Positions 10,540 through 36,624 of a DNA stretch of 36,829 bases are shown in pieces. The position numbers and the translations under genes are program-made. How positions within the stretch are numbered: the stretch's first letter is position 1; the number at the start of each line of letters is the position of its first letter. Origin of the DNA: Chiloscyllium plagiosum (lineage: Eukaryota); NCBI RefSeq assembly GCF_004010195.1, contig NC_057752.1, forward strand, positions 13,786,300-13,823,128, in the 5' to 3' direction. The notes under the pieces are model-generated. The model saw only the letters and a list, made by a program, of their open reading frames with translations, was not told where the DNA came from and searched no databases.

Positions 10540-10716
10540 AAAATACTGACCCAGTTTGAGGAAACTCGGGCAGCATCTGTGTAGAGAGAAAGGGGAAAAA
10601 CAGTTAATGTTTCGAATCAGGTATAACACTTCATCAGGATTCTGCCCTGAAGAAGGGTGACTGCTTCGCTCTCTCCACAGGTCTGCCAGACCCTGCTGAG
10701 TTTCTCTGGGCAGTTC
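10540..10716. mobile_element. Degenerate palindromic element of a related older family
   Basis: gaaactcgggcagcatctgtgtagagagaa ... ctctctccacaggtctgccagaccctgctgagtttc are inverted relatives. The minus strand has a CUGAUGAA...GAAACAUU remnant at 10603-10640 and the + strand has a ctgaagaagg remnant. Confidence 0.5.
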
Positions 10717-12242: not shown

Positions 12243-12430
12243 GCTGTAACATCAGTGGCTTGGTGACTATAGCAACCAAAACATTTCTGAGGTATGACAA
12301 GCTGAGGGAGCTGATCTCGAGCGTTAGGAAGTATTACCCCAATGTCACCATTGTCATTGCGGATGACAGCGACAAACCACAAAAGATTGAAGGAGACTTC
12401 ATTGAGCAGTACTTCATGCCGTTTGGGAAG
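12243..12430 (+). CDS. B4GALNT1: Internal coding exon (188 nt, phase 1/0) of B4GALNT1-like gene, start of the GT-A catalytic domain
   Basis: Acceptor tgtgtgttttag, donor gtgcag. Translates [62 protein letters not shown]. The NIS sequon and FLRYDKL favour B4GALNT1 over B4GALNT2. Confidence 0.93.
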
Positions 12431-13335: not shown

Positions 13336-13678
13336 AGTGACTCCAATGAAAGGAAGGCAAAGACGAGAGTCACAGTCCTATTGCCTTCTGACTGGGCAGT
13401 CTGAACATGCCACAAAAAGACAGCCAGCTTAGGTTTGCAAATGCTGAGGCAAGGGAAAGGTGTGAGATGGGGCAACCCGTACGAAACAAATCTCGGGGAG
13501 TCAAAACTATTTCAGAAGGGAGTGCGCTGTGACTGAGTTCAGAAAATGGACGCAAGACTCAACAGGTCTGCAATGTTTTTCCTGGTGGTAGGAAGCAGTA
13601 GGTGAAGTGAAGGAATGATGCAGTCACAGAGTCATAGAAAGGTCCAGCTCATCCATGCCAACCAGTTATCCTAAATTA

Positions 13679-13836
13679 GGTGAAAGTGGGTACTGCAGAT
13701 GCTGGAGATTAGAGTGGTGCTGGAAACGCACAGCAGGTCCTGATGAAGGGCTTTTACCCGAAACGTCGATTCTCCTGTCCCTCGGATGCTGCCTGACCTG
13801 CTGTGCTTTTCCAGCACTGTTCTAATCTTGACAGAA
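13679..13836. mobile_element. Third, more diverged copy of the palindromic element inserted in a HER1/CR1 3' end
   Basis: Begins ggtgaaagtgggtactgcagatgctggaga. TSD atcc(t/a)aaatta at 13668-13678 and 13837-13847. Confidence 0.75.
13736..13771 (+). ncRNA. Minimal hammerhead ribozyme-like motif in hairpin element
   Basis: GGUC-CUGAUGA-A-GGG-CUUUUA-CCC-GAAA-C-GUC/GAUU. Canonical CUGAUGA core. Confidence 0.6.
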
Positions 13837-14369
13837 ATCCAAAATTAATTGAGTCCCATTTGCTAGCTGTTGGGCCATATCCCTCTAAACTCTTCCTATT
13901 CATCCACCACTTCCTCTGGCAGCTCATTCCATACACGTATCACCCTCTGTGTGGAAAAGTTGCCCCTCAGGTCCCTTTTAAATCTTTCCCCTCTCACCTT
14001 ACACCTATGCCCTCTAGCTCTGGACTCCCCCACCTCAGGGAAAAGACTTTGTCTATTTACCCTATCCATGCCCCTCATGATTTTATCAACCTCTATAAGG
14101 TCACCCCTCAGCCTCCGACACTCCAGGGAAAACAGCCCCAGCCTGTTCAGCCTCTCCCTGTAGCTCAAACCCTGTCAATGTGTGTCTGGTAGAATATTCT
14201 CAAGCTTTCAGGCCGAAGTTCATTGTGTGCATTCATACACAAAATCCAGTACTAAGGAAATAAAGATCCAAAAATCGACAGTTCTGAGAATATTCAACCA
14301 CAAATGTACTCATTAATCGCATTGTTCTAGATACTATAGCTATTTCTGAAACCATGGAAAAGTTAGCTC

Positions 14370-14700
14370 ACAGGAAGAGGCCATTCAGCCCATCATGTCC
14401 ATGCTGTTGAATATACTAGCCTCCTGCTCTAACTCCACTTTTGAGCCCTTGCTCTGTCGCCCTGCAGGTTCCAAGACTGCAGGGGCAGGTTTCTGTCTCC
14501 ACCATTAAACTGGGCAGTGGCCCAGACACCTACCACCCACTGGGGTAAAGGACTTACCTCATGTTCCCTCTAACCCTTCCACCAATCACCTTCAATCTGT
14601 GGCCCTTGCTAAGTGACCTCTATGTGAGGGGAAACAGACCTACCTTGCCCACTCTGTCCAAGCCCCCTCATTATTTTATACACCTCCATTCAATCACCCC
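14370..14700 (-). mobile_element. Degraded CR1 3' end
   Basis: aggccattcagcccatc tail and accacccactggggtaaag RT-end similarity. Confidence 0.6.
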
Positions 14701-15971
14701 CCAACCCCCCCCCCCCCCCAGTCTGTTCTGTTTGTGCAGCTGAAGTGAGTGGAGACCACAAATTTCAGAAATAATCCCAGAAGCTGCAGTTCTAAGAAAG
14801 AAGAACTTGTATTTTTTTAAAAAACATAGCACTTTTCATGACCTCTGGCCATCTCATAGCATTTTACAGCCATTAAGGTGTTCCTTTGAGGTTAGTCACT
14901 TTTCTTTCAAGCGAGCAAACTCACAGGAAGCGGGTGTTGTTGGCTGACCCCCAGCAATTATTGCCTGTCCCTAGTTGCCCTGAGGAAGGCAATCCCAGTG
15001 ACACTGAAGGAATGGGGACATATCTTGTGAACATGTGTTGGAGGAGCTGCTAGGACTTGTTAAATAAATAGTTTTGCACCTTAGAGCAGAACCTCAGAGA
15101 GGAGTTGGATTCATTTGAAGCTGCAGTGTGACTGACTGACTGCTTTACTGCTGAAACAAGATCCCTGCCATTTGTGACTCTTGCACACCCCTGTTTCCCA
15201 TGCACCTGTATTAGTGGACCAGCCCTCAGCTGCCCAGACTCTGCCCTCTGGAATGCCCTCCCCACACCCCTGCTTTGCCCAGTAAATAAGGAGCTCCTTT
15301 CAAAGCTAGCTCAGGCATTTGGCCACCAGTTCACTCGTCTCCCTGCGTGGAGTCGGGCCCTGGACGAGAATTGTTCCTGCAAAGCACCTTGGGAGGTTTT
15401 ATTACATTAAAGTTGCTGCCTAAAAGCCAGTTATTGTGGCTATCGCTTTGAGATCACTGTATGGTAACGTTTATGTCCTGCTTTAATGGGCTCTCAGTTA
15501 CATTGATTCTGAGCAAAAAGCATCTCTCTTTCTGTCAGCATCAGGCATCCAGGATAAGGGGGAGACCGTGAGTTCCTCACCACAAGTGGATTTTAGAGGA
15601 CCTGCGATTATGTTTCCAGTGAAGTACTTTGCAATTACTTCAATCTTTGAGCAACCTTTTCCACTCTAATCAATCAGTGATATACTGCATTTGAATTTCC
15701 CCTGGTAGCCTCCGCCACAGAATGCCTGTCAATAAGGAGGAAATTTATAAGCGATTCTACCCGAGCTCAGTTAATATTGGAGATAATGACAGCAGAGGAA
15801 ATGTTGCTTTTATCTCAATCTGGGGGAGGCTTAAACAACTCCATTTCATGAACCATAGTGTCTCAGTCGAGAAAATGATGCGTCACCCCTGCTTCACTCG
15901 CCCTTTCGATCCTGTCGCCAGATACGACTCGATTCAAAGCAAGTCTCTGTGTGGAGAGACTCTCTGTGTTG

Positions 15972-16218
15972 ACTGTATGTGTGGAATTTGCACATTCTCC
16001 CCGTGTCTGTGTGGGTTTCCTCCGGGTGCTCCGGTTTCCTCCCACAGTCCAAAGATGTGCAGGTTAGGTGAATTGGCCATGCTAAATTGCCCGTAGTGTT
16101 AGGTAAGGGGTAAATGTAGGGGAATGGGTCTGGGTGGGTTGTGCTTCAGCGGGTCGGTGTGGACTTGTTGGGCCGAAGGGCCTGTTTCCACACTGTAATG
16201 TAATCTAAACTAATCTAA
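15972..16218 (+). mobile_element. 5'-truncated HE1-type V-SINE
   Basis: V-domain and tail ttccacactgtaatgtaatctaa. Confidence 0.9.
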
Positions 16219-16381
16219 GTGAGGTGGGGAGGTGGAGTCAGTTCCAGAAAAGGGATCCCTCGGAGCAAGCGATATCCCGTGATGTTTGCTTTTCCCAAAG
16301 GGAGCAAGGCATGTAACGAGAGCCTTTGTGCAGCTATTCTGAATTCTGTGGAATCTGATCAATGTCTTTTTCTCTCTGCAG

Positions 16382-16522
16382 GGCTGGTTTGCTGGGCGCA
16401 ACTTGGCGATTTCCCAAGTCACGACGAAATATCTGCTCTGGGTCGACGATGACTTCATTTTCACTGCAAACACCAAGCTGGAAAAGCTGGTGAACATCTT
16501 GGAGAAGACAACACTGGATTTG
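16382..16522 (+). CDS. B4GALNT1: Internal coding exon (141 nt, phase 0/0) of B4GALNT1-like gene containing the DXD motif
   Basis: Acceptor ctttttctctctgcag, donor gtaaga. Translates [47 protein letters not shown], continuing MPFGK in frame. Confidence 0.94.
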
Positions 16523-16887
16523 GTAAGATGGCCACACCGATCTCGGCACTAGCCAGCCGGAAAGCTTTGCCGTTTTCGCTGGTTGTGGAACAACTTTGTT
16601 ATTGGGAATCATGTTTCCAACTGGCATCTACTGCTGACATCTTCTTTCTTGTCCATCTGGGACCATCCTAATTTCCACAATCTAGAATCACACTTACCCG
16701 CTGCTCCGTCAGCTAAAGCCTTACATTGGGGAAGGACCGATTGTTCCAGTTTGTGAAATGGGCGTGACTGTTGCAGAGAATGTGGTTGACATGTCATTTG
16801 GGTTACAGAGGAACTGGTCACTGGAAGGATAATGGTTTGTGTAGCATTGCTTTGATATGCTCATTTCACATTAAGTAATACATTATT

Positions 16888-17172
16888 CAGGAGAAAGTGG
16901 GGACTGCAGATGCTGGAGATCAGAGCTGAAAATGGTGTTGCTGGAAAAGCGCAGCAGGTCAGGCAGCATCCAAGGAGCAGGAGAATCGACGTTTCGGACA
17001 TGAGCCCTTCCCACTCAGATGTACGAAAGTGCAGGAGTACAGTTGGAAGTAGTACAGGAAACGTCAATTCTCCTGCATTCCTGAAGAAGGGCTCATGCCC
17101 GAAACGTCGATTCTCCTGCTCCTTGGATGCTGCCTGACCTGCTGCACTTTTCCAGCAACACATTTTCAGCTG
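16888..17172. mobile_element. Short palindromic non-autonomous element, probably Penelope pseudo-LTR derived, with 10-bp TSD
   Basis: Inverted arms of about 85 bp. TSD atacattatt at 16878-16887 and 17173-17182. Contains a hammerhead motif. Confidence 0.8.
17077..17112 (+). ncRNA. Minimal hammerhead ribozyme-like motif in hairpin element
   Basis: AUUC-CUGAAGA-A-GGGC-UCAU-GCCC-GAAA-C-GUC/GAUU. Perfect 4-bp stem II, weak stem I. Confidence 0.65.
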
Positions 17173-17891
17173 ATACATTATTAACACCAACTCAGATATA
17201 GCCTTACCGATTTGGATTTATTGAAGCCAGTATGGCACGCATTGACTCACATGCCTTTTCCACAGTGTTCTTGACACAGTGACCCTTGCCCACACCCTCT
17301 TCCTTCCCAACTCCCTGCAGGTTAGCGTACCTTGGTTTCAATGTGGATAAGTGACCCTGTTGTACAATCTTTATACTCGAGGGGGATGGTTTGAAGTCCT
17401 GGCCCAGGCTGTACTGAACCGGTTCAGAGCACCAGGCCACAGATAGATGCCTTTCTTCCTGCTGCGTACTGAAGGATAGATTCAGCAAACTCTCTGGTTG
17501 AGAGATAGAACTCAAAGCTGCAATGGTCAGTGACATGTGGGACAGCACTTAGTGATGTTCTAAATCTGCTGCCTTTTGAAATGTGGCTCCCCACTCAGAT
17601 GTATGAAAGTGCAGGAGTACAGTGGGAAGTAGTACAGGAAATGTGAGTTGTACAGAGTACAGGAGAATGTGGCCACACATGACACCATCTTAGGTACAAG
17701 TACCTAGATACAGAATCATAAGAGCAAGATAGAAAGAAAGGATAAAGTTAAAAGTTAAACACTGCAGTAATTTTTGGTAGAAAATAAAGAAATAAAGCTG
17801 AAAGTTCAAACATTACGGTCTTTCTTAAGTGCTTAGCGACGGTGGAACTGCACTTCAAGGAATCACCTCAAGACTGGAAGTCCACGCTGAA

Positions 17892-18079
17892 GCCACACTG
17901 GGCCCGAGAGACTGCCACATACCGCCGAAAGACCGCCATGCCAGGCTGAGAGACCGCCACACTAGGCCAAAAGACCTCCATGTTAGGCTGAAAGTCCACC
18001 CCAATGGACCAGTGAGAGATCGCCACGCCAGGCCGAGAGACCACCATGCTAGGCCAGGAGATTGCCCTGCCAGGCCGCC
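17892..18079. repeat. Degenerate 21-bp minisatellite, about 9 units
   Basis: Units like gccacgccaggccgagagacc at 17914, 17935, 17956, 17977, 18022, 18043, 18064. Confidence 0.85.
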
Positions 18080-19031
18080 TCGCTGGGCCTGCACTGAGTC
18101 CAAGGCTGGGAGTCTGATGCCGGGAGAATAAAAAAGAGAAAGGAAGCAGATGGAGCGGGCAAGCTCTGTCTGAAGTGTCCTACTCCGCCGACATCTTGGG
18201 ATATGATCCTCAGATGTTAACTGTCCCCTTCCTTGCTCTGTCCCCTTCTCCACTCCTTTTGAGTTGCCCCAACAGTGACACTCTTGCTATCCATGAGTTG
18301 GCTCATCAATAATGGCTGGTCTGTCATCCAAAAACGACCCTGCCAGGCTGCACTTATTTCACCCACAGCGCCAGAGATGCAGGGTGGCACTCATCCAGGT
18401 CTCTGCTTCCTCTGGCCTCGTACCCGTTTGAAACCCCCACTCTTGACCATCTTCCTCACTCTTTCCTTTGAGCTCAATGCCAAGGTACCCTTCTGCCCCT
18501 CACTAAGTTGTTACTCCAAGTCACTTGGCACCGTGCCTCTCTCCTTAAATCTTTTGAGCCGTCATGCTTCCCCAAACCTCTAAGTCAGCACTCTGGCTCA
18601 GATCCCATTGCGAAACGAGGCCCACCATCTTGAAGATTTAGTTCACCGATAAGGTTGCCGCCCTGGTTCTTCCCAACGTTAGCTTGCACGTGGCCATGAC
18701 AAGATAGGAGTAGGCTTTTCCAATCAGCCAGTCTGTGTTGGTCCGCACGAGTAGTCTGAATCTCCGGCACTGACCTCTTCCTCATTCCCGTTCCCTCCAA
18801 CCACCTCGCGAACTGACCCTTGGTTTCTGCTCCAATCATTAATTCAGGGTGAATGCTGCACCCTCACGTTCCTGAGTAGAAACATTTCTCTCGCTCTCTT
18901 TTCTAAGGCTGTTACGTTTAATAACTCTATACCGTTATTCCAGAACCACTCAATCATTGTGAATAGGTCCACCCTTTCACAACTTTAACACATCCATCAA
19001 TCCTCAGTTACTTCTCTCTGTCCTTATGAAG

Positions 19032-19355
19032 ATTAGATTAGATTTCCTACAGTTTGGAAACAGGCCCTTCGGTCCAGCAAGTCCACACTGACCCTCCGAA
19101 GAGCAAGCCACCCAGACCAATTCCCCTACCCTATATTAACCCCTGACTAATGCACCTAACACTATGGGCAATTTAGCGTGGCCAATTCACCCTAACCTGC
19201 ACATCTTTGTGACTGTGGGAGGAACTGGAGCAAACCCACGCAGACACGGGGAGATAATGCAAGCTCCACACAGACAGTCGCCCGAGGCTGGAATTGAACC
19301 CGGGTTCCTGGCGCTGTGAGGCAGCTGTGCTAACCACTGAGCCACTGTGCTGCCC
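19032..19355 (-). mobile_element. HE1-type V-SINE
   Basis: Full head, V-domain, (ttaga)n tail. Confidence 0.9.
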
Positions 19356-19457
19356 TTGAAACAGCCTTGAGTTGTCAAGTATTTGTATCCTCCTCACAGT
19401 TGGCGTGATCCAAATGAATCTGTTCCCTATCCTAACCATTTCCTCAATTATCTTCCT

Positions 19458-19585
19458 GTTATGGTTCTGTTTGCCGAGCTGGGAATTTGTGTTGCAGACG
19501 TTTCGTCCCCTGTCTAGGTGACATCCTCAGTGCTTGGGAGCCTCCTGTGAAGCGCTTCTGTGATCTTTCCTCCGGCATTTGTAGT
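19458..19585 (-). mobile_element. Penelope-like element terminal (pLTR/3') fragment
   Basis: Carries the hammerhead motif. Its minus-strand end agaaccataac matches the start of the tail attached to the PLE RT fragment at about 20412. Confidence 0.7.
19494..19533 (-). ncRNA. Minimal type I hammerhead ribozyme motif in a Penelope-like terminal repeat
   Basis: Minus strand reads GCA-CUGAGGA-U-GUCACCU-AGAC-AGGGGAC-GAAA-C-GUC/UGC. This gives the CUGANGA and GAAA core, stem II with one A.G mismatch, a 3-bp stem I (GCA/UGC), a palindromic ACGU stem III and a GUC cleavage triplet. Confidence 0.8.
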
Positions 19586-19795
19586 ACATAGAACACAGAA
19601 CATAGAACAGTACAGCACAGAACAGGCCCTTCAGCCCACGATGTTGTGCCGACCACTGATCCTCATGTATGCACCCTCAAATTTCTGTGACCATATGCAT
19701 GTCCAGTAGTCTCTTAAATGTCCCCAATGACCTTGCTTCCACAACTGCTGCTGGCAACGCATTCCATGCTCTCACAACCCTCTGTGTAAAGAAAT
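19586..19795 (-). mobile_element. CR1 3' end abutting the PLE fragment
   Basis: (atagaac)n tail, caggcccttcagccc, ttccatgctctcacaaccctctgtgtaaagaa. Confidence 0.75.
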
Positions 19796-20146
19796 GTCTC
19801 CTCTCATTCTTCTAAACACCGAAAAGTATAGGCCAAACCTACACAACCTCCTTTTTAAATATTGCTTGCTAGTTTACCCATAACATATATTTTCTCCTTT
19901 TTTAAAAAATAATTTTTTTGTTCATTTTCAACATTTTCCCAATCCTTTGGCTTTCCACTAATCATCATGACATTGCATCTTTACCTTGCAATTTGATGCT
20001 ATCTTTAAATTCCTTGGTTAATGATGATTCTTTGATCCCCTTCCTGGAATCCAACTTCCACATTGGGATATATCTTTATTACGAGTCAATAACTATAAAT
20101 ATCAGCCATTGCTCATTGATTGTCTTTCCTGCTAAACCTCTTTCTC

Positions 20147-20460
20147 AGATCTGTCGATGAAATTGCGCGGGTATCCGTTTTTGGCGAATACATTGTAGAG
20201 GTATTCTTCTTCCTCTTTTTGCAGTTCTGGTGTGCTGCAGTGTGTTGTGGCCCTTTTGAACAGTGTCTTGATGCAACTTCTTTTGTGTGTGTTGTGGTGG
20301 TTGCTTTCATAGTTCAGGACTTGGTCTGTGTGTGTGGCTTTCCTGTATACCTTCGTGGTGAATTCTCCGTTCGGTGTTCTCTGTACAGGAAAGCCAAACA
20401 CACACAGACCAAGAACCACAACAATGAGCACCTGAGCTACAAATCTTCTCCCAAGCTTTG
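20147..20460 (-). mobile_element. Penelope-like element RT C-terminal (thumb) fragment with inverted tail
   Basis: Minus-strand translation VQRTPNGEFTTKVYRKATHTDQVLNYESNHHNTHKRSCIKTLFKRATTHCSTPELQKEEEEYLYNVFAKNGYPRNFI matches the PLE pattern VYRKxTHTDxxL...NGYP. Confidence 0.85.
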
Positions 20461-20795
20461 AGTATCTTCCTGTAGTGCAAAGCTCAGACCAGCATACAGT
20501 GCTCCAGCTATGGTCAAACAAGGTTGATACAGACTCACCACTATATTTTGCCTCAGAAAGAAGATTCTATGACTCTTGCCTTTAAATTTCTAATTCCATT
20601 CATTTTTTTGTTTTATTCTTATCCACCTGAGGTGTTGTTTTCAGTCTCAGACTGACCTGAACGTCCCCCCATCGTCTGTTTTTTTTCCCCCTCACCCAAT
20701 TTCTTCCCATTCGATAATCGTACCAATGTTTCCTGATGCTCCCTTTATTCCTCAGAATTAGTTCCTCTGCAATCGGGATGACTGTTACTTTAAAT

Positions 20796-21522
20796 TTATT
20801 CATTCGTGGCATGTGGGTGTCACTGCCTGGGCCGAGCATTTATTTCCCCGTCCCTAATTGCTCCCTTGAGAAGGTGGGGGTGAGCTGCCATCTTGAATCG
20901 CTGCGGTCCATGTGCTGTGGGTTGACCCACAATGCCCTGAGGGAGAGAATTCCAGGATTTTGACCCAGCGACACTGAAGGAACAGCAATATATTTCCAAG
21001 TCAGGATGGTGTGGGGCTCGGAGGGGCTGGTGTTCCCATGTATCTGCTGCCCTTGTCCTTCTAGATGGAAGTGGTCGTGGGTTTGGAAGGTGCTGTCTGA
21101 GGGTCTTTGGTGAATATCTGCAGGGCACCTTGTAGATGGTACACACTGCTGCTACTGAGCGTCGGTGGGGGGAGGGAGTGGGTGTTTGTGGATGTGGGGC
21201 CAATCAAGCGGGCTGCTTTGTCCTGGATGGTGTCGAGCTTCTTGAGTGTTGTTGGACCTGCCCCCATCCAGGGGCAAGTGGGGAGTATTCCATCACATTC
21301 CTGACTTGTGTCTTGTAGATGGTGGGACAGGCTATGGGAAGACAGGTGGCCAATCAAGCGGCTGCTTTGTCCTGGATGGTGTCGAGCTACTTGAGTGTTG
21401 TTGGACCTCCCCCATCCAGGGGCAAGTGGGGAGTATTCCCTCACCCTCCTGACTTGTGCCTTGTAGATGGTGGGACAGGCTATGGGAAGACAGGTGGGGA
21501 GTTACCCATTGTAGCCTTCCTA
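20796..21522 (-). mobile_element. 3' end of CR1/L2-group LINE with internal 150-bp tandem duplication
   Basis: TLKKLDTIQDKAARLIG, HRRSVAAVCTIYK. caatcaagcg at both 21201 and 21351. Confidence 0.82.
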
Positions 21523-22022
21523 NNNNNNNNNNNNNNNNNNNNNNNNNNNNNNNNNNNNNNNNNNNNNNNNNNNNNNNNNNNNNNNNNNNNNNNNNNNNNN
21601 NNNNNNNNNNNNNNNNNNNNNNNNNNNNNNNNNNNNNNNNNNNNNNNNNNNNNNNNNNNNNNNNNNNNNNNNNNNNNNNNNNNNNNNNNNNNNNNNNNNN
21701 NNNNNNNNNNNNNNNNNNNNNNNNNNNNNNNNNNNNNNNNNNNNNNNNNNNNNNNNNNNNNNNNNNNNNNNNNNNNNNNNNNNNNNNNNNNNNNNNNNNN
21801 NNNNNNNNNNNNNNNNNNNNNNNNNNNNNNNNNNNNNNNNNNNNNNNNNNNNNNNNNNNNNNNNNNNNNNNNNNNNNNNNNNNNNNNNNNNNNNNNNNNN
21901 NNNNNNNNNNNNNNNNNNNNNNNNNNNNNNNNNNNNNNNNNNNNNNNNNNNNNNNNNNNNNNNNNNNNNNNNNNNNNNNNNNNNNNNNNNNNNNNNNNNN
22001 NNNNNNNNNNNNNNNNNNNNNN
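21523..22022. other. Assembly gap, exactly 500 N (probably an arbitrary-size scaffold join)
   Basis: Run of N with a round length. The flanks are unrelated repeats. Confidence 1.
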
Positions 22023-22395
22023 GATCAGATCTATCCAAGGATGCTACAGGAAGCGAGGAATGGGATTGCTGTGCCTCTGGCAATGATCTTTGCATCCTCA
22101 CTCTCCACAGGGTGGCGAATATTGCTCCTCTGTTCAAGAAAGGGAATAGGGAAATCCCTGGGAATGACCGACTGCTCAGTCTTACGTCTGTGGTAAGCAA
22201 GGCACTGGAAAGGATTCTGAGAGATAGGATTTAGACTATTTGGAAAAATATAGTTTGATTGAAGATAATCAGCATGGCTTTGTGAGGGGCACGTCATGCC
22301 TCACAAACCTTACTGAGTTCTTTGAGGATATGACGAGACAAGTTGACAAAGGTCAAGCAGTGGACGTGATGTACATGGATTTCAGTAAGGCATTT

Positions 22396-24352
22396 AGAAC
22401 ATAGAACATAGAACATTACAGCACAGTACAGGCCCTTTGGCCCGCGATGTTGCGCCGACCTGTGGAACCAACCTGAAGCCCATCTATCCTACACTATTCC
22501 ATTTTCATCCATATGCCTTTCCAATGTCCATTTAAATGCCCTTAAAGTTGGCGAGTCTACTACTGTTGTAGGCAGTGCGTTCCACGCCCCTACTACTCTG
22601 AGTAAAGAAACTACCTCTGACATCTGTCCTATATCTATCACCCCTCTTGTGCTAGCCATCGCCATCTGAGGAAAAAGGCTCTCCCTGCCCATCCTACCTA
22701 ACCCTCTGATTATCTTATATGTCTCTATTAAGTCACCTCTCAACCTTCTTCTCTCTAACAAAAACAGCCTCAAGTCCCTCAGCCTTTCCTCATAAGACCT
22801 TCCCTCCATACCAGGCAACATCCGAGTAAATCTCCTCTGCACCCTTTCCAAAGCTTCCACATCCTCCTTATAATGCGTTGGCCAGAACTGGATGCAATAC
22901 TCCAAGTGCGGCCGCACCAGAGTTTAATACAGCTACAACGTGACCTCATGGTTACAAAACTCAATCCCTCTACCAATAAAAGCCAACACACCATATGCCT
23001 TCTTAACAACCCTATCAACCTGGATGGCAACTTTCAGGGATCTATGTACATGGACACCGAGATCTCTCTGCTCATATACACTACCAAGAATCTTACCATG
23101 AGCTCTGTATTCCTGTTGTTCCTTCCAAAGTGAATCACCTCACACTTTTCCACATTAAACTCCATTTGCCACCTCTCAGCCCAGCTTTGCAGCTTATCTA
23201 TGTCCCTCTGTAACCTGTAACATCCTTCTGCACTGTCCACAACTTCACAGACCTTAGTGCCATCCACAAATTTACTAACCCCCCCTTCTAACCCAACCCT
23301 CATTCAGGTCATTTATAAAAATGACAAACAGCAGTAGCCCCAAAACAGATCCTTGCGGTACACCACTCATAACTGGACTCCAGGATGAACATTTCCCATC
23401 AACTACCACCTTCTGTCTTCTTTCAGCTAGCCAATTTCTGACCCAAACCACTAAATCACCCTCAGTCCCATGTCTCTGTATTTTGTGCAGTAACCTATCG
23501 TGGGGAACCTTATCAAACACCTTACTGAAATCCATATACCCCACATCAACTGCTTTACCCTCATCCACCTGTTTGGTCACCATCTCAAAGAACTCAATAA
23601 GGTTTGTGAGGCACAACCTACCCTTCACAAAGCCATGCTGACGATCCCTAATCAACTTATTCCTTTCCAGATGATTATAAATCCTATCCTTTCCAACACT
23701 TGACCCACACCCGAAGTAAGGCTCACTGGTCTATCATTACCAGGGTTGTCTCTACTCCCCTTCTTGAGCAAGGGGACAACATTTGCTATCCTCCAGTCTT
23801 CTGGCACTGTTCCTGTAGACAAAGAGGACATAGAGATCAAAGCCAAAGGCTCTGCAATCTCCTCCCTGGCTTCCCAGAGAATCCTGGGATAAATCCCATC
23901 TGGCCCAGGGGACTTATCTATTTTCACACTTATTCTTTTATTCCTGATCTACCTATAGAAAGTTTCAGGGTTTTTCTTGATCCAACCTGCCAAAGGCTTC
24001 TCATGTCCCCTCCTGGCTCTCCTTAGCTCTCTCTTTTGGTCTTTCCTGGCTACCCTGTAACACTCAAACTGAGCCTTCACATCTCATCCTAACATAAGCC
24101 TTCTTTTGCCTCGTGACAAGAGACTCAACGTCTTTAGTAAACCATGGTTCCCGCACTCGACCACTTCCTCCCTGCCTGACAGGTACATACTTATCAAGGA
24201 CCCGCAGTAGCTGTTCCTTGAATAAGCTCCACATTTCAATTGTGCCCATCCCCTGCAGTTTCCTTCCCCATCCTATGTATCCTAAATCTTGTCTAGTCGC
24301 ATCATAATTGCCTTTCCCCCAGCAGTATATACCAATCCCTTTCCTTTGTTAA
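22396..24352 (-). mobile_element. 5'-truncated CR1 LINE (~1.95 kb) nested in the + strand CR1
   Basis: [54 protein letters not shown] and an (atagaac)n tail. Frameshifted. Confidence 0.92.
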
Positions 24353-25054
24353 ATTTGATAAGGTTCCCAACAATAGGCTCATTTAGAAAGTTAGGAGGTA
24401 TGGGATACAGGGAAATCTGGCTGTCTGGATACAGAATTGGCTGGCCCATTGAAGACAGAGGGTGGTGGGAGATGGAACGTATTCAGCCTGGAGCTCGGTG
24501 ACCAGTGGTGCTCCGCAGGGATCTGTTCTGGGGCCACTGCTCTTTGCGATTTTTATAAATGACTTGGATGAAGAAGTGGGAGGGTGGGTTAGTAAGTTTG
24601 CCGATGACACAAAGGTCAGTGGTGTTGTAGATAGTGTGGAGGGCTTTTGTAGGTTGCAACTGGACATTGACAGGATGTAGAACTGGGCTGAGAAGTGGCA
24701 GATGGAGTTCAAACTGGAAAAGTGTGAGGGGATTCATTTTTGGAAGGTCGAATTTGAATGCAGATTACAGGGTTAAAGACAGGATTCTTGGCAGTGTGGG
24801 GGAACAGAGAGATCTTGGGGTCCACATCCATAGATCCCTCAAAGTTGCCACCCAGGTTGACAGGGTTGTTAAGAAGGCGTGTGGTGTTTTGGTTTTCACT
24901 AACAGGGAGATTGAGTTAAAGAGCCGCGAGGTTTTGCTGCAGCTCTATAGAGCACTAGTTAGACCACACTTGGAATATTGTGTTTAGTCCTGGTCACCTC
25001 GTTATAGTAAGGATGTAGATGCTTTAGAGAAGGTGCAGAGGAGATTTACCAGGA

Positions 25055-25357
25055 GGCTATTACAGAGACTTGGACATCACAGGGTCAGGAATGGTCTTTG
25101 GATGTTCCAGGGTTGAGATGTTTTAAAAGGAATAGGGAGGAAGGTAAAAGGGGTGGAGGAGTGGCATTGCTAATCAGGGATAGTATCACAGCTGCAGAAA
25201 GGGAGGTCATCGAGGAGGGTTTGTCGACAGTGTCAGTGTGGGTGGGAGTCAGAGACAGGAAAGGAGCAGTCACTTTATTGGGAGTTTTCGACAGCCCCCT
25301 CCAACAGCAACAGAGACACAGAGGAGCAGATTGGGAGGCAGAGTTTAGAAAGATGAA
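25055..25357 (+). mobile_element. CR1 endonuclease-domain fragment inserted in the host CR1
   Basis: AITETW, VPGLRCFKRNREEGKRGGGVALLIRDSI. Confidence 0.85.
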
Positions 25358-26106
25358 GAACATAGAACAGTGGATTGGAGGGCATGTCTTATGAAGAGAG
25401 GTTGAGTGAGCTGGGGCTTTTCACACTGGAGAGAAAGAAGGAAGAGAGGTGACTTGATCGAGGTGTACAAGGTAATGAGAGGCATAGATAGAGTAGATAG
25501 CCAGAGACTTTTCCCCAGGATAGAAATGGCTGTCATGAGGGGTCATAATTTTAAGATGATTGGAGGAAGGTTTAGGGGAGACGTCAGAGGTAGTGGGTGT
25601 GTGGAATGCACTGCCAGCGGTGGTAGTAGAGTCAGAGATATCAGGGACATTTAAGCGACTGCTGGACAAGCACATGGACAGCAGTAAATTGAGGGATGAG
25701 TGGGGTTAGGTTGATCTGAGATTACGATAAATGCTCAGCACAACATTGTGGGCCGAAGGGCCCGTACTGTGCTGTGCTGTTCTATTCAGCGTTTCTCAAG
25801 AAATCCAAGGCCAGGTGAAGAAAATGCTAGAGGTGAGCACCCATTCCATTTAAACTTAACATCAGATTCCCACATTTGTTGCAAAATTTTAAAAAGTTTA
25901 TCAAATAACGTAAAGTACCTGTTGGCACTAGTGGTTCTTCTGCTGGTTGGCAAGATGTAATGGCTGGTGTGTTACAAAGATGAGTGCTGATATCTCGACA
26001 GTTTACTGTTTGTATAAAAGACTTTTGAAGTACAAGGGTATAGTAACTAAATTAAGTTTCCAAACAAGATTAACAAGCCAACCTTCTATCCCAGTGAATA
26101 TATTAT

Positions 26107-26380
26107 AGATTAGATTCCCTACAGTGTGGAAACAGGCCCTTCGGCCCAACCAGTCCACATCAACCACCCCCCCTGCTGACTAATGCACCTAACACTAATA
26201 GGCAATTTAGCATGGCCAATTTACCCCTAACCTCCATATCTTTGGACTATGGGAGGAAACCCACGCAGACACAGGAAGAATGTGTAAACTCCACACAGAC
26301 AGTCGCCCAAGGCTGGAATCGAGCCTGGGACCCTGGCGCTCTGAGGCAGCAGTGCTAACCACTGAGCCACTGTGCCGCCC
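26107..26380 (-). mobile_element. HE1-type V-SINE
   Basis: Head, V-domain and tail with small internal deletions. Confidence 0.88.
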
Positions 26381-27302
26381 TTGTATACCTACAGCATGAG
26401 CTTTTATGTTCCACAGTAACATTTGGGGCACCTTCAGGGTCTGTTTCCTCAATGTTGTTGGGTCAAAATCCTTGTATTCTCTTCCTAACAGCACATGGAC
26501 TGGAGTGGTTCAAAAAGACAGCTCACCACCACTTTCTCAAGGGCAAGTAGGGATAGAAACATAGGATAGGAGCAGGAGAAGGCCATTTGGCCCTTCAAGT
26601 CTGTTCCTCCATTCATCACGATCAGGGCTGATTGTCCAACTCAATAGCTTCATCCTGCTTTCTTCCCATAACCTTTGACCCCATTCACCCCAAGTTCTAA
26701 ATCTAGCTGCCTCCTGAACACATTCAAAATTTTGGCATCAACTACTTCCTGTAGTAATGAATTCCACAGGCTCGCAATTCTTTTTGAGTGAAAAAATGTC
26801 TCCTCGTCTCTGTTCTAAATGGTCCACCTCAAATCCTCAGACTGTGACCCCTGGTTCTGGATGCACCCACCATCGGGAACATCCTCCCTCCATCTACCCT
26901 GTCTAGTCCTGTTGGAAATTTATAAGTCTCTCTGAGATCCTCCCTCACTTGTCTGAACACCAGCAAAAGCAGCCCTAACCTAGTCAATCTCTCATATGTC
27001 ACTCCCACCATCCCCGGAGTCAGCCTGGGAAACCTTCACTGCACTCCCTTGAGAGCAAGAGCATCCTTCCTCAGAAAAGGAGACCAAAACTCACACCCAA
27101 CAACACACCCCTGCTCCTGGACTGAAAACATCTCTCAATGCAGGCCAATATACCATTTGCCTTCTTTCCTGCCTGCTGCACCTGCACGCTTACCTTCAGT
27201 GAGTGGTACACAAGGACACCCAGGTCCCACTGCAGACTGTTGTCAACTTACAGCCATTCACAGGTAGTAAGCTGCCGCCTTATTTTTGCTTCCAAAGTGA
27301 AT

Positions 27303-27495
27303 AGCTGGAAAAGCGCAGCAGGTCAGGCAGCATCCAAGGAGCAGGAGAATCGACGTTTCGGGCATGAGCCCTTCTTCAGGCTCATGCCCGAAACGTCGAT
27401 TGTCCTGTTCCTTGGATGCTGCCTGACCTGCTGCGCTTTTCCAGCAACACATTTTTCAGCTCTGATCTCCAGCATCTGCAGTCCTCACTTTCTCC
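27303..27495. mobile_element. Second copy of the palindromic element, opposite orientation, inserted in a CR1 LINE, with 12-bp TSD
   Basis: TSD tccaaagtgaat at 27291-27302 and 27496-27507. Arms are nearly identical to those of 16888-17172. Confidence 0.82.
27348..27383 (-). ncRNA. Minimal hammerhead ribozyme-like motif in hairpin element
   Basis: Minus strand reads C-CUGAAGA-A-GGGC-UCAU-GCCC-GAAA-C-GUC/GAUU. The 5' side of stem I is lost at the fold-back junction. Confidence 0.55.
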
Positions 27496-28267
27496 TCCAA
27501 AGTGAATGACCTCACATTCATCCAAATTATGCTGCATCTGCCATTGATTTGCCCACTCAACCCAACCTGTCCAGATCGTGCTGAAGGATCTCTGTATCCT
27601 TCCCACCCAACTTGGTATCATTTACAAGCTTTGAGATGTTACGTTTTGTTCCCTCATCCAAATCATTAGTGTATGTTATGCATAGCTGGGGTCCCAGCAC
27701 TGGTCCCTGTGGCATCACTAGTTACTGCCTGCCAGTTTGAAAAGGACCCGTTAATTCATAATCTTTGTTTCCTCTTTCTTCTTTCCAGATTTTTATCCAT
27801 CTTCATACACTTCCCCCACTCCCATGCGCTTTAATCTTGCATAATAATCTCTTATGTAGGACTTTGGACTTTCAGAAAGCATTTGACAAATATACCACAT
27901 TGATTGTCTCCCCTTTGTCAACTCTACTAGTTACAACTTCATAGAATTCCAACAGATTTGTCAAGCATGATTAAGGAGCAGAATTAAAGCTGTTTAGCCC
28001 ATCGAGTCTGCCATTCAATCATGGCTGATATGTTTCTCAGTCCCATTCTCCTGTCTTCTCTCTGTAACCCTGATCCCCTTATTGTCAAGAGCCTATCCTT
28101 CTCTGTCTTAAATACACTCAATGACTTGGCCTCCAGAGCCTTCTGTGGCAATGAGCTTCACAGATTAACCAACCTCTGGCTGAAGAAATTCCTCCTTATC
28201 TCAGTTCGAAAGGATCGGCCCTTCAACATGAGGCTGTGCCTCAAGTCCTCGTCTCGCCTTCTCGTAG

Positions 28268-35250: not shown

Positions 35251-35917
35251 TATCAATAGTAACTCTTACTATCTTCTTTTTGTATTTCCAGCTGGCTTTC
35301 CCTTGCTCGCCAGTGTTTCCCTCCACATCAGTGTTTTTGTCATTTCCTCTTTTCTGCTCAACCTTCTGACCCTTCACATTTGATGTGATGAGAGACTGCG
35401 TGAGTCAGGTTAATACTCTCCGGATTTGAGGAGAATGAGGTTGAGACAGACTTGATTCTGAAGGGTTTCGACAGGGTCGATACTGAGGGGTTGTCACCTC
35501 CAGGCTGGGGAACTCAATGGGGGGGGTGGGGGGGAGGAGAGCACAGTCTCAGGGTAAGGGGATAGTCATTCTGGACTGAGATCAGGAGATATTTCTTCCC
35601 TCAGGGGAGTGGGGGAATCAGTCAAATTCTCTCTCCCAGAGAGTGATGCATACTTCACTGGAGAGTACACTCAGGAGTGATGTAGACAAGAGTTTCAGTC
35701 AAGGAAGCAAAAAGATGGAGGGAGGGGGTGGGAAAGTGCGCTCAATCTGTCTTGAATGTTAAAGCAGCCAAAAGGCTCCCATTTTGGACACGGTGTTTTT
35801 CGAAGTACTGAGGGTTCTCGTGTTTAATGCTGCCGGACTGGGGGTTTGCCGAGTGTTACGGAGAGGGCGGGGAAGGGATTCAAACCGGCTCTCATTCCTC
35901 CTTGCGTTTCCCCACAG

Positions 35918-36048
35918 GGATCACAGAAGAGTACAGGCCTCCGTTCTATGACGTGGTGCCCACTGACCCCAGTTTCGAGGACATGAGGAAAGTTGTCTGC
36001 ACCGACCAGTACAGACCCAGTGTTCCCAACAGGTGGCTCTCCGATCCG
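35918..36048 (+). CDS. Penultimate coding exon (131 nt, phase 1/0) of an ALK1/ALK2 (ACVRL1 or ACVR1) TGF-beta family type I receptor kinase
   Basis: Acceptor cttgcgtttccccacag, donor gtaggc. Translates (G)[47 protein letters not shown] and DQYRP plus linkage to B4GALNT1 suggest ACVRL1, whereas MRK and NRW.SDP look like ACVR1, so the paralogue is not resolved. Confidence 0.9.
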
Positions 36049-36624
36049 GTAGGCAGCCCGCGTCTTTCCGTGCGGTATTCCCTCTTCCGGGGGGAGGGGC
36101 CACGCGTGTTGTGAGCAGGCCCGGCTTGCAGGCCGAAGCCCGGGCAACGATCTTGCATTTGGGTAGCGCCACCCGCGCCCCCCCCTCCCCAGGCAGGACA
36201 CAGCCCCTTCACTGGGACAGTTAGCAGATCACACAAGGAGGCATCGGTTTAAGCAGCACCTTAAATGCGGAAAGGGAGGGAAATCCAGAGCAGATTCCCC
36301 AGAAAACTAAAGGCACGGCGATGGGCCATGTAATGGGGGGAGAATTCTTGGAGCACCGAGATCCCGGAGGTTCGGGGAGGGTGCTGGAGGAGATTACACA
36401 GCTAGGGAGGGCTACGGCCACAGAGGGATTGAACAAGGCCAACTCAGTTTGTCTGACTTCCAGAGCCCAATTGATAGAAAGCACACATCAGGTTCCTGAA
36501 CTGAACCAGAGCCACAATTTATTACAGGGGATTAGACTTTAGCAACAGGGAAATAATTATAAACTATTGCCACATAACATTACTAGTTAAAATTCTAATC
36601 CCCTTATCAAATCCCCACTGCATG

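Follow-up and report, generated by a model that had tools for sequence, protein, structure and literature searches.

The canonical endonuclease-bearing Penelope-like elements (PLEs), in the available passages of PMC8557442 (Craig et al. 2021) and PMC3846280 (Arkhipova et al. 2013), insert with head-to-head inverted pseudo-long terminal repeats (pLTRs), an optional tail of ~36 bp at one end only, partial tandems, microhomology joints, captured host DNA and target site duplications (TSDs). An inverted 5′-truncated copy and a one-sided tail of 30–40 bp are standard PLE features in these passages, and the origin of the inverted and tandem ends is named an open question in those of PMC8557442. The role of the PLE hammerhead ribozyme is also unsettled. 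Here, we analyze hairpin-shaped insertions with hammerhead cores in the shark Chiloscyllium plagiosum, whose copies form a large natural data set. Three of them, A (13679..13831), B (16888..17172) and C (27303..27495), lie in a stretch of 36,829 nt, called the window, from assembly GCF_004010195.1 (NC_057752.1 positions 13,786,300–13,823,128, forward strand), and are given in window coordinates.

A PLE protein of the Poseidon clade from the anole (PAc) has been studied in vitro, and the main text of PMC11167929 (Frangieh et al. 2024), in its available part, describes the system. This protein cuts and extends both DNA strands, begins reverse transcription at two internal sites bracketing the tail, needs RNA 3′ of them and is a predicted dimer. 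It is unaffected by hammerhead mutations, so that ribozyme cleavage is dispensable, and no reads end at the cleavage site. That part of the text has no account of inverted copies and no 5′ end map. The PAc open reading frame (ORF) begins inside the hammerhead, whereas the shark ATG comes ~40 nt after the tail.

The minimal type I hammerheads of metazoan PLEs, as described in the available part of PMC4209133 (Cervera and de la Pena 2014), share with the shark one the core, the single base before stem II, the G10.1–C11.1 pair and a palindromic minimal helix III. They also occur as opposite-strand pairs 100–700 bp apart and mostly as single motifs from truncated PLEs. The putative shark hammerhead differs in a stem II of only 4 bp and in a U–U mismatch of stem I in the young subfamily. 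The non-LTR retrozymes (Li, Clavereau, Pollet 2026 preprint, in its available part) are likewise PLE-derived, hammerhead-bearing and non-coding, and occur in a cartilaginous fish too. They are, however, head-to-tail tandems with a hammerhead per unit, while the shark copies are single or inverted.

The family itself is an ordinary one, a shark Neptune-type PLE showing known structures. Its copies differ from the canonical ones in being mostly pLTR-only stubs, tens of thousands of them, and in having TSDs of 13–17 bp against 8–10 bp in the rotifer PLEs (PMC8557442, PMC3846280, available passages). The 5′ pile-up, the G excess and the long-plus-short counts described below do not appear in those passages. 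We consider it probable that the hairpins are short PLE-end insertions, for which the reverse transcriptase (RT)-endonuclease nicks both strands ~15 bp apart and makes one cDNA per nick from two internal start sites on the mRNA.

By its sequence, the hairpin unit is the hammerhead-bearing end, or pLTR, of a Neptune-type PLE. An exact 34-mer of it matches the genome 25,336 times (control 0), a lower bound that counts only exact matches of one subfamily. A genome search with B finds dozens of near-identical copies, some extending upstream into a common 3′ untranslated region (UTR) and the end of a GIY-YIG endonuclease, and others extending past the tail into an ORF start. At one locus (L106, G000:C21:15803408-15806572), RT motifs, thumb, C-x4-C-x2-C linker, GIY-YIG with CCHH, 3′ UTR, hammerhead and tail follow in this order. 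The hammerhead pLTR thus stands on both sides of the ORF as a partial tandem, on the 3′ side in L106 and on the 5′ side where it runs into the ORF start.

Pfam recognizes RVT_1 in L106 (E 1.6e-8) and GIY-YIG only at E 0.09, under the Pfam cut-off. The RT with a C-terminal GIY-YIG and CCHH is present in the translations of three loci (L106, L110 and L117), all with the linker between the two domains. A CX2-5CxxC linker is a mark of Neptune or Nematis in the available part of PMC8557442. The nearest named relative of the L106 protein is from Chiloscyllium punctatum (81%) and the next are long RT proteins of marine invertebrates; the relatives have 800–950 aa, many with GIY-YIG (PF01541), and no clade-named reference is among the matches. 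We take the element for Neptune rather than Nematis on the basis of host range. No solved structure matching the RT was found.

The first-pass annotation, made from the window alone, had proposed a PLE origin with RNA-mediated insertion and suggested looking for copies attached to RT and GIY-YIG ORFs. Such copies exist, in L106 and others, and this direct joining supports both proposals. The hairpins are short, high-copy and inverted-repeat in shape, as a DNA-transposon family of miniature inverted-repeat transposable elements (MITEs) would be. Their unit is nevertheless the end of an RT and GIY-YIG element, and the asymmetric ends, the variable TSD length and the unique centres also speak against MITEs. 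The annotation was right to reject this origin, to which we give practically no chance. In genome annotations, hairpins of this kind belong among the PLE ends and not among MITEs, microRNA precursors or host riboregulators.

Element positions are numbered from the hammerhead cleavage site (= 0), and the population sample has 89 loci in chromosome order (30 from the 34-mer match list and 60 fetched stretches, less one duplicate). The 3′ ends of 142 arms lie at +93..+102 (54), +56..+68 (53), +42..+53 (30) and elsewhere (5). The third group partly consists of sister subfamilies diverging there, and the two main ends are at about +60 and +98. The "one fixed end" that the annotation saw in all three insertions is therefore one of two alternative 3′ ends.

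An inverted piece is present in 46 of the 89 loci. Among 45 inverted pairs, 35 join a tailed to a tail-less arm, six are called short plus short, four are otherwise and none is long plus long. With a looser tail call on 68 pairs (loci L125–L274), the long-plus-short, short-plus-short and long-plus-long pairs number 64, 3 and 1. TSDs of 13–17 bp flank 28 of the 45 pairs and shorter ones flank four, while no TSD of any length appears in 225 shuffled flank pairs. The pairs do not look like copies of one unit: all 39 centres examined are distinct (39/39), and the lengths grade from ~75 bp to the ORF-bearing copies. This goes against the separate non-autonomous hairpin family that the annotation had envisaged. 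Five pairs of the same length differed at 5–8 places.

One way to an inverted arm is self-priming, in which one strand of the same element folds back and copies itself. It has been proposed for PLE inverted junctions (PMC3846280, available part), and would fit the near-perfect palindromes at some centres (L016) and the usual agreement of the two arms in subfamily marks, as at −16 in 29 of 33 pairs. A folded-back arm, however, hardly squares with the 18 of 40 long-plus-short pairs in which the tail-less arm extends 3 nt or more beyond the other in the 5′ direction, as each arm then holds sequence that the other lacks. Both 3′ end types are also found on single-arm insertions, and the arms differ at +11, a site variable among subfamilies, in 15 of 60 pairs (L125–L274), compared with 4.4% at other non-CpG sites. 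We thus regard self-priming as unlikely.

Position +11 is no CpG site but behaves like one. The arm difference there reflects either two templates or a mutation hotspot.

The 5′ ends bear on the template. None of 141 arms begins at the cleavage site (0 or +1), which speaks against copying of the cleaved RNA, and the model of a cleaved or circular RNA template in the available part of PMC4209133 is not borne out by the shark copy ends. Instead, 44 of the 141 end at −29..−32 with a peak of 15 at −31, where the stop rate is 0.31, compared with 0.06 or less per base downstream of −27; 14 run past −68. Position −31 is the A of TCATTC, which we take to be an initiator-like motif. The pLTR of D. virilis Penelope contains an initiator and downstream element (Inr/DPE) promoter (PMC2377424, available part). 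Moreover, the 5′ end of the short arms is shared by pieces bearing the ORF start, which derive from the 5′ pLTR or from a tandem joint: among 36 such pieces, 11 extend at least to −26, and 8 of the 11 stop at −26..−33.

In the cores genome-wide, the base before −31 is G in 1,100 and A or T in 692 (61% G). The counts for G before −30 and −29, made by eye among the first 100 listed of 1,448 and 851 cores, are 18 and 17. Native upstream sequence is found at 0 of 30 G loci, so the extra G is not a subfamily variant. An extra G at one position can be left by copying of the mRNA cap or by untemplated addition at run-off, as with LINE-1 and pseudogenes. From these ends and the G, we infer that −31 is a capped transcription start.

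The pile-up could instead mark RT stalling or dropping off after the hammerhead fold on a longer RNA; −31 coincides with the 5′ edge of stem I, and many copies extend past it. But a stall should fall 3′ of the fold, where the stop rates are low, and would give no reason for a G excess confined to one position. This explanation seems improbable to us. RNA reads on the unit have loose ends at −31 (75 reads) and at +96..+99, but 95% run on into unlike flanks, and they are no test of the start site.

Returning to nicks on both strands, the insertion would proceed as follows. With a capped start at −31, reverse transcription begun in the 5′ pLTR would run off after 90–130 nt. Each nick would prime one cDNA, one from each RT start site. 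The two cDNAs, of the same polarity and unable to anneal, would be linked head to head by end-joining with microhomology and filler, and the staggered nicks would yield the ~15-bp TSD. Each hairpin would be a dead-on-arrival by-product of element transcripts, made anew per insertion. The template would be uncleaved RNA, and the ribozyme, lying within the first 31 nt of the RNA, would travel with it.

A fuller claim, to which we give an even chance, is that the stubs are the genomic record of a dimeric enzyme that primes both nicks on capped sense mRNA, the run-off cDNAs being joined head to head. If true, the inverted pLTR, the one-sided tail and the excess of solo pLTRs would all follow from one model. 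The antisense self-priming idea would then be superseded, and RNA cleaved by the ribozyme would be shown not to serve as the insertion template. The end statistics predict a start at −31, a cap-derived G, a nick stagger of ~15 nt, and one long and one short start per insertion.

LINE-1 twin priming is related, where a second nick primes a second cDNA to give a 5′ inversion, and full-length 5′ ends carry an untemplated G. The LINE-1 segments are adjacent and non-overlapping, whereas the two shark arms copy the same stretch from two fixed starts. In the literature searched, no paper was found on a PLE cap-like G, run-off pile-up or double priming, although subscription papers and supplements (Frangieh Fig. 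S2) may hold 5′ data.

The stubs could also be a family of their own, similar to short interspersed elements or retrozymes, whose pLTR-only or internally deleted masters carry an internal promoter and are moved in trans by the PLE protein. The short copies do far outnumber the ORF-linked ones (14/141 arms past −68), internally deleted copies exist (L070 and L078), and no intact ORF is among the loci seen. Trans-mobilization by pLTRs is reported in a rotifer (PMC3846280, available part) and retrozymes are PLE-derived (bioRxiv 10.64898/2026.07.22.740005, available part). But a non-autonomous unit would not be expected to have a distinct centre in every pair, and the ORF-start pieces share the 5′ end of the short arms. 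Tandem hammerheads are too rare for the retrozyme definition (13 exact joints against 25,336 unit matches), and by analogy with the anole protein, which depends on RNA 3′ of the RT start, the short copies are missing a required part. Such a family is, in our judgement, a poor candidate.

Several points weigh against the double-nick reading. No intact full-length parent ORF was found among the loci examined in a non-exhaustive search; L106 is frameshifted and L070 and L078 are internally deleted, so that trans-mobilized deleted masters could have supplied the source RNA. The TSD is missing from 13 of the 45 pairs, and unequal arms could also arise when an inserted palindrome loses sequence asymmetrically at its centre. 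At 8 of 30 G junctions, the G may belong to the inverted arm, as its last base, and not be an addition. The −31 site is a peak and not a wall, as 3,609 exact cores extend to at least −33, a reach that 3′ pLTR copies and microhomology joints should show. The RNA reads, from four runs of which one had none placed and whose species may differ, form no pile of molecule starts. The copies sampled are young and lie within the first 12 Mb of one chromosome, and the in vitro evidence comes from a different clade, Poseidon.

Two further observations concern the parent element. Three unlinked young copies (L036, L044 and L046) have the same ~600-bp non-PLE stretch ahead of the 3′ UTR, which suggests host sequence carried by one source element. 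In L070 and further ORF-start loci, element positions +64 to +100 hold a pyrimidine tract and branch-point-like words followed by an AG, directly before which the tail ends. This AG, at the long RT start, resembles a 3′ splice site, but an intron ending there was considered and rejected as there is no good donor between −31 and the tail. Likewise, a sub-lineage with built-in tandem hammerheads was dismissed as query bias, the tandem joint having 13 exact copies only.

The three insertions in the window (Table 1) match one another at 76–99% in both orientations, and their places and inverted arms are as first annotated. They fold as hairpins far beyond chance, with z of −5.3 (A), −18.8 (B) and −19.6 (C). 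The annotation gave each its own TSD of 10–12 bp, which holds exactly for B and C, while around A no exact TSD reaches 7 bp. The flanks of A show an 11-bp match with one mismatch, and empty copies of the host repeat at nine loci hold a 16-bp stretch once, decayed on both sides of A. These comparisons point to a decayed 16-bp TSD. For C, the site is confirmed by two empty paralogues with a single 12-bp stretch. The lengths of 10–12 bp fall below the family mode of 15–16 bp. The filler and the partial second hammerhead at the centre of B went unmentioned in the annotation; similar fillers and short captures occur at other junctions, e.g. in L022.

Table 1. Features of the three insertions and of the host gene, in window coordinates
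Feature	Position	Strand	Basis or remark
B4GALNT1 coding exon upstream of A	12243..12430	+	match to PDB 9h6j, E 5e-24
A, left TSD, 16 bp, probably decayed (inner 11 bp, one mismatch)	13663..13678	+	present once in 9 empty paralogues of the host repeat
A, inverted tail-bearing arm, older sister subfamily, stops short of hammerhead	13679..13739	-	sequence comparison
A, tail-less arm; core 13740-13767 with one stem II mismatch	13739..13831	+	sequence comparison
A, right TSD (probable)	13832..13847	+	empty paralogues of host repeat
Presumed B4GALNT1 coding exon between A and B	16382..16522	+	AG...GT bounded
B, left TSD, 10 bp exact	16878..16887	+	flank match
B, inverted tail-bearing arm, element +98 to -18	16889..17006	-	sequence comparison
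B, filler, 58 bp, 93% identical to 17587-17644; short microhomologies at both joints	17007..17064	+	copy of DNA ~415 bp past insertion
B, partial second hammerhead piece, -7 to +11; rare 43-nt tandem	17059..17076	+	13 exact joint copies genome-wide
B, tail-less arm from -31/-32 on, with an intact minimal type I hammerhead core at 17081-17108	17077..17172	+	sequence comparison
B, right TSD	17173..17182	+	flank match
C, left TSD, 12 bp exact	27291..27302	+	present once in 2 empty paralogues
C, tail-less arm, -28 to +48; core 27379-27352 without most of stem I	27303..27380	-	sequence comparison
C, inverted tail-bearing arm, -18 to +97	27379..27495	+	sequence comparison
C, right TSD	27496..27507	+	flank match

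Each insertion has one CUGA(N)GA-A-stemII-GAAAC-GUC core, as first noted, on one arm only, and the GUC ends at 13767 (+) in A, 17108 (+) in B and 27352 (−) in C. B has the core (CUGANGA, GAAA, NUH), the stem II and the palindromic helix III of the minimal type I hammerhead and is the only one of the three with an intact minimal core; A, of an older sister subfamily, has one mismatch in stem II. Stem I, 4–5 bp long in hammerheads of this type, keeps 3 of 4 pairs in B and has 4 in A, two of them G–U and made by the junction. It is lost in C, where the 5′ strand is gone and one of the first two pairs is left. The B core fits a minimal PLE hammerhead with a weak stem I, as judged from its predicted pairing.

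The model search that the annotation had suggested gave no hammerhead match in Rfam at E up to 5 and only sub-threshold microRNA hairpin matches, because such minimal cores fall outside the Rfam models. Its idea that the inverted arm sequesters the ribozyme is upheld by prediction for B (37 kcal/mol) and C (43 kcal/mol), but only weakly for A (8 kcal/mol), where the inverted arm stops short of the core. In a natural 5′ pLTR copy, the computed cost of forcing the core open is 4 kcal/mol.

A and B had been placed in introns of B4GALNT1. This holds for A, which lies between the two exons of Table 1, the second of which we assign to B4GALNT1 from sequence motifs. B lies 365 bp past the GT donor of the second exon, and its intron is not closed, as a motif scan found no later B4GALNT1 exon after 16522 within the window. 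Nothing in the results points to a role for the insertions in B4GALNT1. At a density of about one exact match per 140 kb, two copies within one gene need no function. An exon near 35900–36050 is presumably that of an activin-receptor-like kinase, and an assembly gap lies near 21520–22010.

Other PLE ends are present in the window. A second, unrelated family is represented by two pieces: at 19460–19560 (−) a minimal hammerhead, at 19530, whose stem II is longer, and at 20135–20410 (−) a fragment that reads like an RT thumb that we take to be Poseidon-type, with no real match in Pfam. A third hammerhead-like end, from another family, lies at about 10590–10640 (−). Several further PLE-end families with differing stem II sequences occur among the fetched loci.

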